Virus record (IMG/VR): IMGVR_UViG_2687453321_000002
Coordinates: 1 to 64,000 of that record
Strand: one strand, 5' to 3'
Length of the DNA: 64,000 bases
From: a virus
Taxonomy: Duplodnaviria; Caudoviricetes
The notes under the pieces are model-generated. The model did not search any database and was not told where the DNA came from. It saw only the letters and a list, made by a program, of their open reading frames with translations. Both the position numbers and the translations under genes were made by a program. Below are positions 49,125 to 60,002 of this stretch, in pieces. Numbering within the stretch: the stretch's first letter is position 1; the number at the start of each line of letters is the position of its first letter.

Positions 49125-49169
49125 GAGTTATCTCCACACATAGGCCCGCTGCAACGGGCCGTTAAATAT

Positions 49170-52178: not shown

Positions 52179-52263
52179 AATTATTCTCCACACAGTTTTT
52201 GGCAACACTTCACCAAATACCCCATTGCTGGGGTATTTGAGGCTGTATTACTTATTTAAAAAA

Positions 52264-53145: not shown

Positions 53146-53517
53146 TTACTTTGCGACCCGTAATTTACCGTCAGTGCCACCATCTACTGTAAATAGCTGA
53201 CCTTGGTCTTCTTGCAGAATTGTTAACTTACCGCCTTTGCCAACGTACATTGGCGTTTCGGTGGTATCTTCTTCTGAAACTTTCCCACGTGGTGTTGGGG
53301 TTACAAATTTCAGTTGATGTTTAATGCTGACGCGCTTTTCTTCAACCGAATTGCTTAAACGATCAATGTCGAGGGTAATAACGACTTTACCTTTACCGCC
53401 ATTATTAAGAACGCCCAGCGCAGTAGCGTTTAATGCTGCTGAAAATTTATTTTCAAACACGCCGGCATCCAGTTCACCCAGAAAGTCCGGCACATTGGTT
53501 TTGCGGTCTTCACTCAT
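53146..53517 (-). CDS. YfdP-like protein
   Basis: TNVPDFLGELDAGVF, EEDTTETPMYV. Confidence 0.8.
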   Translation of the reverse strand: MSEDRKTNVPDFLGELDAGVFENKFSAALNATALGVLNNGGKGKVVITLDIDRLSNSVEEKRVSIKHQLKFVTPTPRGKVSEEDTTETPMYVGKGGKLTILQEDQGQLFTVDGGTDGKLRVAK

Positions 53518-53561
53518 AAAATAGTCCTCACACGAAGCGGCGATCGCCGCGGTTTTCTCCA

Positions 53562-53640
53562 CACACCTGGTGGCGCACCGTGCCGGGCTATACTGTGGAG
53601 AAATTAATAAGGAAACCGGCACAGTACGCCACCTGATGTG
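53562..53640 (-). ncRNA. Candidate structured RNA: 25-bp stem with loop containing TTTCTCCACAG (anti-barcode)
   Basis: Stem has 3 G.U pairs and 1 mismatch on minus strand; 29-nt loop complementary to TGTGGAGAA. Confidence 0.45.
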
Positions 53641-53937
53641 TAAAAAGGGCGGCCAGCCTATGAACATTATCTTCATCCTCCTGGTGTTGGTGGGTTGAAG
53701 TTCGGCGTGGCCGCCAAAGACTACACAAAGCAATTCATCGGTTGTGGTGGCCGGCGGACAACGCCCCTGAAGTCCACCAGCCAGATCCACAACGGTATGC
53801 TCACTCATGAGTTAGGATCTTCCACCGCTCCCAGAACTGAGGGAAAGGGCGAGTGAGCATGCCGTTGTGTGCCGGGATTTTTAACCACGCCCGGCGCGTG
53901 GTATCTTGGAGTTCTCACACAACCAAGAAGGATTGAG

Positions 53938-54123
53938 ATGAAAAATATTGATGCTGTAACTCAATTTGCGTTTGAATATATCCGCAATCAAAATGAAACT
54001 TATTCGTCACCTGCTGAATTTCTGATGGCTGTGAATAAAATTAAGTGCCAGTTTGCTGATCTTCTTGAATGTTCCCCTTCGGAGCTCCATAAGGCTGTTG
54101 TTGATGCTCGGGAGACGAATTAA
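53938..54123 (+). CDS. Small hypothetical protein opposing the pL operon
   Basis: SD AAGGA; 61 aa. Confidence 0.5.
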   Translation: MKNIDAVTQFAFEYIRNQNETYSSPAEFLMAVNKIKCQFADLLECSPSELHKAVVDARETN

Positions 54124-54358
54124 CGCAATTCAGAACCGCTCTCATACCAACAACCATTGCTTCTGCAGTGGTTGTTACTGCGCTGAGCACATCAGCCTTG
54201 GGTTTTCCACGTAGCACGTAGTCTTCAGCGACGCGTGATATAGTTGGCCCAAATAATTCAACCAAATAATTAGCAAAATGTTTGTTTACTTCTTCGCCGA
54301 AGAAATCATTCATACATTCTTCGTGGGACTTCTGTTTTTCGATAACCTTTCCCATCAC
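54041..54358 (-). CDS. Hypothetical protein, first gene of pL operon
   Basis: 105-aa ORF after structured leader. Confidence 0.5.
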   Translation of the reverse strand: MMGKVIEKQKSHEECMNDFFGEEVNKHFANYLVELFGPTISRVAEDYVLRGKPKADVLSAVTTTAEAMVVGMRAVLNCVNSSPEHQQQPYGAPKGNIQEDQQTGT

Positions 54359-54462
54359 CTAAACCCCTTACTGAAAGTCACCTGAGCGAATCATCCCGAT
54401 CTTCATGCGCCTCGGGCGGCTACTTCGTGGGCGTCCTGCCTGTTCGCTGTTGATGAATTAAA

Positions 54463-54512
54463 GTTTACATAACAAAACAAATGCGTCAAGCGAAAAGTTT
54501 GTATATCAAAAC
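54463..54512 (-). promoter_or_regulatory. OL operators of prophage 2
   Basis: GTTT-N8-AAAC at 54463-54478 and 54497-54512; TTGACG -35 on minus strand. Confidence 0.65.
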
Positions 54513-54589
54513 TTGAGCGAGGCAGGAGTACAAGAAAACCCAGTTATACTGGGTTGGTTAATGTGATGTTCTCAAATTGTATGCTGCGG

Positions 54590-55240: not shown

Positions 55241-55302
55241 GTTTGTATTTTTAAACACATATGGTTTTGATGCTTGACCTTGTTGGGTTTTGATAGTTAA
55301 AC
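55241..55302. promoter_or_regulatory. OR operators of prophage 2
   Basis: GTTT-N8-AAAC at 55241-55256 and 55287-55302; degenerate 55264-55279. Confidence 0.65.
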
Positions 55303-55320
55303 TCAATAATAAACTAGGAG

Positions 55321-56085: not shown

Positions 56086-56148
56086 CGCCCAGAGGTTGCA
56101 GCCCCTGGGCGTCAGTGCGAGTAAATCAGTGTGTGGAGAAATAATCGC

Positions 56149-56343
56149 ATGAGCAATTTAACCAGAAATTCTATGGTGCCGCAAATCCGCTGCCGTGCAA
56201 TGACTGGCGGTAATTCTGCGTCGCCGTTCCGGTATGAGGTCAATGTACTGGGTCGGTGGATTGCCAGCAACTACCAGTTTGCCAGATGGGTGGTAGATGG
56301 CGGCGCCTGGTTGTCACGACACAGCGAGGTGAAGCATGACTAA
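56149..56343 (+). CDS. Small hypothetical protein upstream of Rha gene
   Basis: Starts after GTGTGGAGA SD. Confidence 0.6.
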   Translation: MSNLTRNSMVPQIRCRAMTGGNSASPFRYEVNVLGRWIASNYQFARWVVDGGAWLSRHSEVKHD

Positions 56344-59121: not shown

Positions 59122-59264
59122 GCAGGGGTGACATCATGAAAAATAAGCAATATAGTGATCCACGCGTATCCACTCTTGCAGGGGTAAGAGATGCGCAGGT
59201 TGGTCCCGTCTATTTGCAGATAGCGGGGCGGGACCTGATAAAAATCAGTGTGGAGAATAAGAAC

Positions 59265-60002
59265 ATGAATCAGTTTGATCTGATTGGTGGCGCTTGCGCA
59301 TACCAACCTACCGTTAGCCCATTCGAATTAGCCATGACCAGCCTGGAGATCGCCGAGCTGGTTGGTAGTCGTCACGACAAAGTCAAACAATCCATTGAGC
59401 GATTGGCAGAGCGTGGCGTGATAGCTTTACCCCCAATGGGGGAAAAGGTCACTGCAGGTCGCCCGGCGGCATACTACGTCTTTGAGGGAGAGCAAGGTAA
59501 GCGAGACAGCATCATTGCTGTTGCCCAGCTTTCGCCTGAGTTCACCGCCCGCCTGGTAGACCGCTGGCAAGAACTGGAGCGCAGCCGGCAGAGTCAGCCA
59601 CTCACACAGCTTGAAATCCTTGCCCGCATGGCGACAGAGGCCGCAATCAACGAACGTAAGATGATGGCCCTGCAGCAGCAAGTGAACGGCGTAGAGCAGA
59701 AAATCGAGGAAATATCCTCTGGATCTATCCCCGCTGGCTGGGAAACCGTCCGCAACCTTTCGGCAAAATCTGGCATCTCGAACCAAAAGATCAGGGACCT
59801 GGTCGCCGCCTTTGCCGTACCCAATAAAAAAGTCCCTTTCATGGCGCCTAATGGCATTTTGACGAACGTCACAGTTATCGAAGAATGTGAGTTTGACGGC
59901 GCCATGCGCACCCTGCTTGACGAATCGACTCCGCCGAAGAAGGGGAAATATTGGCAGCACCCGGCGATAGGGCGCTTCGAAATCCGACGAGGCGCAGAGT
60001 GA
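59265..60002 (+). CDS. Rha/Roi-like regulatory protein
   Basis: MTSLEIAELVGSRHDKVK..AQLSPEFTARLVDRWQELE. Confidence 0.85.
   Translation: MNQFDLIGGACAYQPTVSPFELAMTSLEIAELVGSRHDKVKQSIERLAERGVIALPPMGEKVTAGRPAAYYVFEGEQGKRDSIIAVAQLSPEFTARLVDRWQELERSRQSQPLTQLEILARMATEAAINERKMMALQQQVNGVEQKIEEISSGSIPAGWETVRNLSAKSGISNQKIRDLVAAFAVPNKKVPFMAPNGILTNVTVIEECEFDGAMRTLLDESTPPKKGKYWQHPAIGRFEIRRGAE

Follow-up and report, generated by a model that had tools for sequence, protein, structure and literature searches.

Genomic context

The window (the whole 64,000 nt stretch of DNA that was analysed) belongs to a 90-kb provirus record. Its immunity region contains a cI-like gene flanked by operator-like repeats, with cro-like and cII-like genes on the strand opposite to it (Table 1). 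A hairpin with a T-run is present after cI, at 54555..54537 on the minus strand. The promoter-like site that points leftward is likely to be pL, judging from its position; a promoter scan found promoter-like matches at no more than the chance level, with 3 against 3.3 expected. Leftward along the minus strand come a 105-codon ORF, approximately 520 nt without a conserved ORF, the yfdP-like gene, a DUF2303 (yfdQ-like) gene, an HD-domain gene that is the yfdR-like gene, and a methyltransferase gene. The yfdP-like protein has no match in Pfam, and one of its homologues is named 'protein YfdP' in a phage record. The GAGG at 53529..53526 is likely to be the Shine-Dalgarno (SD) sequence of this gene.

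The long hairpin that is the subject of this analysis has its start within the terminator U-run of a DicF-like sRNA, and its end is some 40 nt short of the yfdP-like gene. It would be part of the early-left (pL) transcript in a lambdoid prophage, probably one of Serratia or a close relative. The initial annotation had placed it in the pL leader. It would be on the leftward, pL-side transcript, as had been said, but it does not directly follow pL, being some 800 nt downstream and beyond the first, 105-codon ORF.

The 361 nt before yfdP fold as a row of hairpins (z -6.2). Upstream of the sRNA there is a second long hairpin, which in L009, L012, L013, and L025 is replaced by a cassette with GTTGTGGTGA(A/C)... 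that resembles the STnc100-like domain of Qin. Mechanical ORF calling produces a 220-codon ORF (53808..53146, minus strand) that takes in the sRNA and the hairpin and continues into yfdP. Coding through the hairpin was considered and rejected: the frame from 53808 is open for 99 codons before the yfdP ATG, but in many relatives it is closed within 2 to 20 codons. The extension is not conserved and its annotation is unwarranted.

Table 1. Features of the early-left region and of the hairpin, with coordinates in the window
Feature	Position	Strand	Details
Operator-like repeats GTTT-N8-AAAC	54463-54512 and 55241-55303		Flank the cI-like gene
Promoter-like site TTGACG-16-TAAACT	54462..54489	minus	Between the operator-like repeats; points leftward
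Second long hairpin	53788..53869	minus	19-nt arms, 95% complementary, 44-nt interior; upstream of the sRNA
DicF-like sRNA candidate, ~83 nt	53647..53729	minus	Rfam DicF (RF00039), 23.6 bits, E 0.11
sRNA terminator stem	53715..53708 with 53655..53648	minus	GGCGGCCA with TGGCCGCC, then U-run 53646..53642; predicted fold
Extended helix, ~30 pairs	53556..53646	minus	Minimum free energy folds; U-run + ACA (53646..53641) with UGUGGAGA (53563..53556)
Long hairpin	53640..53562	minus	5' arm 53640..53616, loop 53615..53587, 3' arm 53586..53562
Loop segment AUUUCUCCACA (claimed anti-barcode)	53594..53604	minus	Complementary to TGTGGAGAAAT
TGTGGAGA directly 3' of the stem	53556..53563	minus	Within invariant block TGTGTGGAGAAA; no start codon within 20 nt
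Small GC hairpin GCGGCGAUCGCCGC	53537..53550	minus	In the yfdP-like leader
yfdP-like gene, 123 codons	53146..53517	minus	ATG at 53517; 598 relatives in viral contigs

The DicF-like sRNA

The sRNA candidate scores below the DicF model's gathering score of 48, as do the other weak matches to this model, in L083 (32.6 bits), L016 (22.4 bits), and L037 (21.7 bits). Its likeness to DicF is in the same place in the operon and in the GGCGG...CCGCCC terminator stem with its U-run. It differs from DicF in length, DicF being 52 to 53 nt, and in its conserved core, GAAGAUAAUGUUC. It shares 84% identity with its counterpart in Serratia phage OS31, where the copy is at the same place, after the cI gene and a DUF1391 (ydfA-like) gene. 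Next in OS31 come a long hairpin that differs from the window's and a gene lying ahead of a DUF2303 gene. The core GA(A/G)GAUAAUGUUC is also found in OS31, L033, L066, L071, and L072, which have other types of cassette downstream, and there is a variant of it in L082. A search for targets of the core within the window identified only its own complement and one site with a single mismatch, which is no more than would be expected by chance. A 12-codon ORF (MNIIF...) on the plus strand, antisense to the sRNA, was rejected; its ATG is ACG in the L016 group.

Sequence and fold of the hairpin

Read on the minus strand, the 5' arm of the hairpin is CACATCAGGTGGCGTACTGTGCCGG and the 3' arm is CCGGCACGGTGCGCCACCAGGTGTG, enclosing a loop of 29 nt, TTTCCTTATTAATTTCTCCACAGTATAGC. 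Of the 25 stem positions, 21 are Watson-Crick pairs and 3 are U.G pairs, with an A.A mismatch at the remaining one. Both the sequence and the fold thus bear out the original description of a 25-bp stem on the minus strand with three G.U pairs and one mismatch. The predicted fold of the minus strand as RNA has an energy of -52.3 kcal/mol, whereas 200 shuffled sequences gave -25.8 +/- 3.0 kcal/mol and none of them was as good (z -8.9). The plus strand folds at -36.4 kcal/mol (z -3.3). On the plus strand the three G.U pairs would turn into A.C, and the weaker fold there, a difference of 16 kcal/mol, is expected if the G.U pairs matter.

The helix is predicted to extend outward, with UUUUUACA on the 5' side of the stem (the U-run and ACA) pairing with UGUGGAGAA on the 3' side. 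All 14 loci of type A, the type to which the window belongs, are predicted to have this extension. With 25 positions in the stem and about 30 pairs with the extension, the near-continuous double-stranded RNA exceeds the length of approximately 20 bp that was looked for in an RNase III substrate. The variants of type A have 26 to 31 pairs in this helix.

There is no U-run or U-tail after the 3' arm, where UGGAGAAAACC stands on the minus strand. The hairpin as an intrinsic terminator was rejected on this basis, the real terminator being the hairpin that precedes it. It likewise has no terminator hairpin of its own with a 3' U-tail, as an Hfq module would. No meaningful match to the hairpin was found in Rfam, the sole one being to MIR2646 at 24.2 bits against a gathering score of 245, and a megablast search of complete E. 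coli genomes found no match, nor anything close. The put-type antiterminator RNA of phage HK022 consists of two short stem-loops, approximately 70 nt, just downstream of the promoter. The hairpin described here is unlike it both in shape, as one 30-bp helix, and in place, about 800 nt from the pL-like site.

A conserved slot for unrelated helices

Of the 598 confirmed relatives of the yfdP-like protein found in viral contigs, the best 80 were used. Sufficient upstream DNA was available for 78 of these, and together with the window they provided 79 upstream regions, 71 of them distinct. A helix of at least 20 pairs that runs from the T-run to TGTGT(A)TGGAG is present in 68 of the 79, a figure that overstates the number of independent cases, many of the type C loci being nearly identical. 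By type, the helix is found in 14/14 loci of type A, 12/12 of type B, 34/36 of type C, 5/5 of type F, and 3/3 others (L022, L072, and L082). The stems in this slot are of at least five unrelated sequence types, and Serratia phage OS31 has yet another stem in the same slot.

Seven loci (L019, L020, L021, L023, L027, L028, and L029) have a tRNA gene in place of the helix, at approximately 2362-2443. These are tRNA-Asn-GTT in L019 and tRNA-Gly-CCC in the other six, and they end 9 nt before the TGTGTGGAG of the yfdP leader. A tRNA gene is an RNA-processing signal too. In two further loci the slot contains a Qin-like insert, which has 33.3 bits on the Rfam STnc100 model (L084, 33.3 bits). The most conserved part across the types of cassette is the flank, TGTGTGGAG(A/T)AA. 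In all of the yfdP-type leaders this block precedes the small GC hairpin, after which come the real SD and the ATG; in other cassette types there are hairpins of different sequence at the place of the small GC hairpin.

Thirteen of the relatives in the yfdP set share the hairpin type of the window (type A). A pattern scan for this type added 31 viral loci and 5 genome loci, and 22 distinct rows were aligned. An exact-pattern scan of species-representative genomes identified the type in three Serratia genomes and one Chania MAG. A 23-nt match to the pattern in a Dehalococcoidia MAG (L120) is without the surrounding hairpin and was rejected as a chance match. Among the type A sequences there is a compensatory change from GGUGGCG/CGCCACC to GGUAGCG/CGCUACC, and the A.A mismatch of the window is an A-U pair in most of the relatives. 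Standard pairs occupy 91.5% of the pair cells in the 22 rows, against 36 to 55% when the partners are slid, although the search pattern fixed much of the 3' arm and the invariant pairs therefore say little. Changes on both sides are seen in 3 of 31 pairs. At the free Y position of the pattern, in the lower stem, G-C has become A-U in 8 of the 22 rows, on both sides every time. The comparison between types of cassette is stronger evidence than the covariation within type A.

In L096, L097, L099, and L102 (pattern match at 401-423) the GGAG at the base of the helix is 5 nt before the ATG of a short ORF, and is there an SD buried in the helix. This sRNA and type A hairpin are retained in the four loci, but the region downstream is another one, with an rdgC-like gene. 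Four Logan contigs of 2.5 to 8 kb (X4, X11, X13, and X14) come from RNA-labelled runs and are informative on sequence only. They retain the block of sRNA and hairpin, with the first pL gene (window 53911-54358) swapped for 486 or 571 other letters, and three of them also diverge just past the small leader hairpin (53537), like L113. These swaps show mosaic exchange around the sRNA-hairpin block.

Comparison with Qin, a prophage in E. coli K-12

In the Qin prophage of K-12, dicF scores 76.7 bits on the Rfam DicF model. After it there is a predicted 21-bp helix, pairing 1649442-1649462 with 1649573-1649593 and enclosing approximately 110 nt, which begins 8 nt beyond where dicF is annotated to end and stops about 15 nt short of the dicB start codon. 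Among the in vivo RNase III sites in the supplement of Altuvia et al. 2018 (PMC6212723) is a pair, 'dicF.dicB.IGR', at 1649454 (C1) and 1649584 (C2). In that paper C1 and C2 denote the nucleotide that lies downstream of the respective cut, and 3' overhangs of 2 nt result from double cuts. These two published sites fall in both arms of the K-12 fold, with the geometry of a 2-nt 3' overhang. Position 1649454 is nucleotide 73 from the 5' end of DicF, and so fits the 72-nt DicF species, which is attributed to RNase III by Balasubramanian 2016 (PMC5069750) and Ponath 2022 (PMC9438474), both citing Faubladier et al. 1990. Processing of DicF that is dependent on RNase III and RNase E is confirmed by Ragunathan et al. 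2023 (PMC10448788). The supplement also lists K-12 RNase III sites upstream of dicF, at 1649182 and 1649251.

The K-12 helix and the hairpin of the window are alike in having at least 21 bp, in standing a few nucleotides past the intrinsic terminator of an sRNA in an early-left operon, and in ending just before the translation start of the next gene. In the window the hairpin is directly 3' of the intrinsic terminator of the DicF-type sRNA, the U-run at 53646..53642 being the first strand of the helix. The order is the same in the window, Qin, and OS31: repressor, early genes, sRNA and terminator, helix, next gene. The two differ in that the helix in K-12 encloses approximately 110 nt of further structure rather than a 29-nt loop, and in the gene downstream, which is dicB in K-12 and yfdP-like in the window. 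The helix in K-12 also has mapped paired cuts in the published supplement, whereas cleavage of the hairpin in the window is predicted.

On the dicF-dicB spacer of K-12 the STnc100 model (RF02076) scores 34.4 bits (E 1.5e-5), and its consensus includes the outer helix. The same model has no match in the window between 50000 and 58000 at E values up to 1. Homology of the window hairpin to the Qin spacer was not found by sequence or by covariance model, and on the present comparison the link to the K-12 site is by position and shape alone. STnc100 is one alternative cassette of the slot, present in K-12 and in L084, with the same kind of outer helix as the window hairpin. A preprint (10.64898/2026.05.13.724894) presents STnc100 and PasD as base-pairing prophage sRNAs with seeds and STnc100 as related to PasD. 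The seeds described there contrast with the seed-like loop of the window, which is not conserved.

Literature searches on DicF with yfdP, and on RNase III helices after the terminators of prophage sRNAs, had nothing on this family among the matches listed. RNase III hairpins that alter the translation or stability of flanking phage RNAs include the lambda N-leader and sib, and the early R sites of T7. Like the hairpin proposed here, these are in phage early transcripts, but they are not known to be linked to the terminator of an sRNA.

The loop and the TGTGGAGA motif

The initial annotation had focused on the loop, proposing that it displays an 'anti-barcode' for TGTGGAGA at the starts of genes elsewhere in the prophage. 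There are 6 copies of TGTGGAGA in the window, against 1.76 +/- 1.16 expected, and none of 100 shuffled sequences reached 6. Four of the copies are 6 to 9 nt before an ATG (49131-, 52185-, 56132+, and 59249+), where they are the SD regions of an xis-like ORF next to the integrase, of the yfdR-like HD gene, of a small ORF that precedes an rha-like gene, and of a second rha-like gene. Of the other two, one follows the stem immediately on its 3' side, and the loop itself, read as its complement, accounts for the other. The perfect complement of the loop is 11 nt at 56132, 10 nt after the stem, 9 nt at 52185 and 59249, and 8 nt at 49131, in agreement with the 8 to 11 nt originally claimed. Shuffling the loop produced TCTCCACA in 136 of 200,000 trials. 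In this one sequence the match of the loop to TGTGGAGA is not naive chance.

The relatives do not retain this match. All 13 type A relatives of the yfdP set keep TGTGGAGA after the stem, and 12/13 have it at the SD of the yfdR-like gene, while the loop has TCTCCACA in just 1/13 (L009), TCTACACA in 4/13, and TTTGCACA in 4/13. L006, L007, L008, and L011 are 97 to 98% identical to the window over a region of 261 nt, yet their loop has TCTACACA. Across 36 hairpin-bearing sequences, 26 of them distinct, a loop complement of at least 8 nt is found only in the window and L091, which is on the same contig as L009. It stops at 6 nt in eight distinct variants, where the central base is A or G, and is 5 nt or less in the rest. 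The loop therefore varies independently of a fixed TGTGGAGA in the homologues, which is the very observation that the initial annotation had named as counting against the pairing of an anti-barcode with its cognate motif. Conservation of a seed, or its co-variation with targets, as would be expected of a base-pairing sRNA that acts in trans, was not seen. A general system of RNA addressing through a trans-acting loop is accordingly unsupported, with the seed in 2 of the 26 distinct variants and the targets unchanged. As for the suggestion that RNase III excises the hairpin and that it then acts in trans, the cutting is supported by analogy with the K-12 site; the action in trans is not, as the seed is unconserved.

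The partial match present in a sub-lineage (AUUUCUnCACAG, AUUUCUnCACA) is better read as a presumed degenerate copy of the strand at the base of the helix (UUUUUACACAU; as RNA, UUUUUACACA), which is itself predicted to pair with the same 3' flank as the loop segment does. The loop of L101 has UUUACACAG at the site of the partial match. A pseudoknot in cis between the loop and the 3' flank was rejected by reasoning from the structure, because no linker remains to span the 25-bp stem and such pairing is excluded while the stem stands.

Two of the copies of TGTGGAGA on the plus strand, at 56120-56150 and 59240-59265, have a more extended context in common, (a)atcag(tg)TGTGGAGAA(a)TAA. A nearly identical string joins the tRNA to the yfdP leader in L019-L029, at approximately 2445-2470. 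Context of the TGTGGAGAA type looks like a recurring linker at module boundaries or translation starts, not a barcode.

A different feature of the loops is more widely shared. The motif NA(C/T)AGT(A/C)T(A/G)A is in 14 of 22 distinct type A loops and in all 11 distinct type B loops, the lower stems of which differ. The window loop has CACAGTATAG (53587-53600, minus strand), one base different from the motif, and the loops of L112, L099, and L121 are similar to those of type B. On the opposite strand the motif resembles a -10 box (TATACT or TAGACT), with no evident -35.

A probable processing helix between the sRNA and the mRNA

The hairpin is, we believe, a processing helix of the RNase III type in the prophage pL transcript, which separates the DicF-like sRNA from the mRNA downstream; on this analysis such a role is probable, though well short of certain. 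Termination at the intrinsic terminator upstream would release the DicF-like small RNA. On read-through the hairpin would be transcribed, and the U-run of the terminator would pair with UGUGGAGAA to complete a double-stranded RNA of some 30 bp. Both arms would then be cut by host RNase III, parting the sRNA, lengthened slightly at its 3' end, from the mRNA of the yfdP-, yfdQ- and yfdR-like genes. The cut would also free the leader of this mRNA and may thus affect its translation or stability. Cutting by RNase III is supported here because the hairpin has the position and shape of the mapped K-12 substrate.

It is conceivable that the structure acts in cis without RNase III, the pairing of the U-run with GGAGAA and the bulk of the helix setting translation or stability downstream. 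It could mask an SD-like standby site, block 5' decay, or shape the 3' end of a read-through sRNA. The strong conservation of TGTGTGGAG(A/T)AA across the cassettes would fit with this, as would the working SD position of the motif in L096, L097, L099, and L102, and the small GC hairpin and real SD that come next in all yfdP-type leaders. However, 8 to 10 bp would be enough to mask the motif, leaving the presence of 20 to 31 bp of perfect-type double-stranded RNA in every cassette unexplained. The replacement of the helix by a tRNA is also left unexplained, and the K-12 counterpart is cut according to the published site list. For these reasons a purely cis-acting role seems unlikely. Rather less likely again is that the upper stem and loop are the functional RNA, binding a protein or serving as a decoy, with the long stem only presenting or releasing them. 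The loop motif common to type A and type B despite their differing lower stems is what would suggest this, but L114 is entirely without the motif, types C and F and L082 have unrelated interiors, there is no Rfam family match, and common descent of the loops in types A and B could account for the motif without any function.

For the loop segment AUUUCUCCACA to be a trans-acting anti-barcode, the hairpin would have to be excised by RNase III and the loop to pair with the UGUGGAGA SDs of the xis-like, yfdR-like, and rha-like genes. The complementarity is real and, from the shuffles, improbable for this loop by itself. The segment is unpaired in the predicted fold, and STnc100, another cassette of the slot, is treated as a base-pairing sRNA in the 2026 preprint. 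That the slot might yield a stable RNA is accordingly not implausible, although none of the observations favours this particular seed. Set against this are the rarity of the seed among the distinct variants, including relatives almost identical to the window that have A or G at the central C, and the constancy of TGTGGAGA while the loop changes. The partial match of the sub-lineage is probably a degenerate copy of the base of the helix, and neither a U-tail nor a terminator follows the hairpin. We consider this role very unlikely. A chance inverted repeat, or an element that functions as DNA such as a protein-binding palindrome or a cruciform, has nothing in its favour except the inverted repeat itself and can hardly be entertained. 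Contrary to it are the G.U pairs, which the opposite strand would show as A.C, the difference in folding between the strands, and the compensatory changes in relatives. It is further disfavoured by the conservation of the slot with unrelated stems.

A broader and more speculative possibility, which we think improbable as a whole, is that the slot after DicF-like terminators is, in the early operons of enterobacterial prophages, a form of swappable 'punctuation'. Helices, the STnc100-type domain, and tRNA would be interchangeable in it, each paired to the same flank (U-run/ACACA with UGUGUGGAG), with host RNases rescuing the sRNA and unmasking the next leader. The upper hairpin of types A and B, with its (C/T)AGU(A/C)U loop, would in that case be a stable functional RNA, and the anti-SD seed may have been newly gained in the lineage of the window.

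The interpretation of the hairpin as a processing helix removes the idea of private prophage barcodes and anti-barcodes and puts a conventional reading in its place. For annotation, the gene-free stretch of approximately 520 nt is best labelled as structured non-coding RNA, comprising the sRNA and processing helices. What is new here is one more unrelated type of helix after DicF-like sRNAs, in prophages of the Serratia group. This additional type strengthens the view that RNase III processing after the terminator of an sRNA is a general design of early operons, rather than a peculiarity of Qin.
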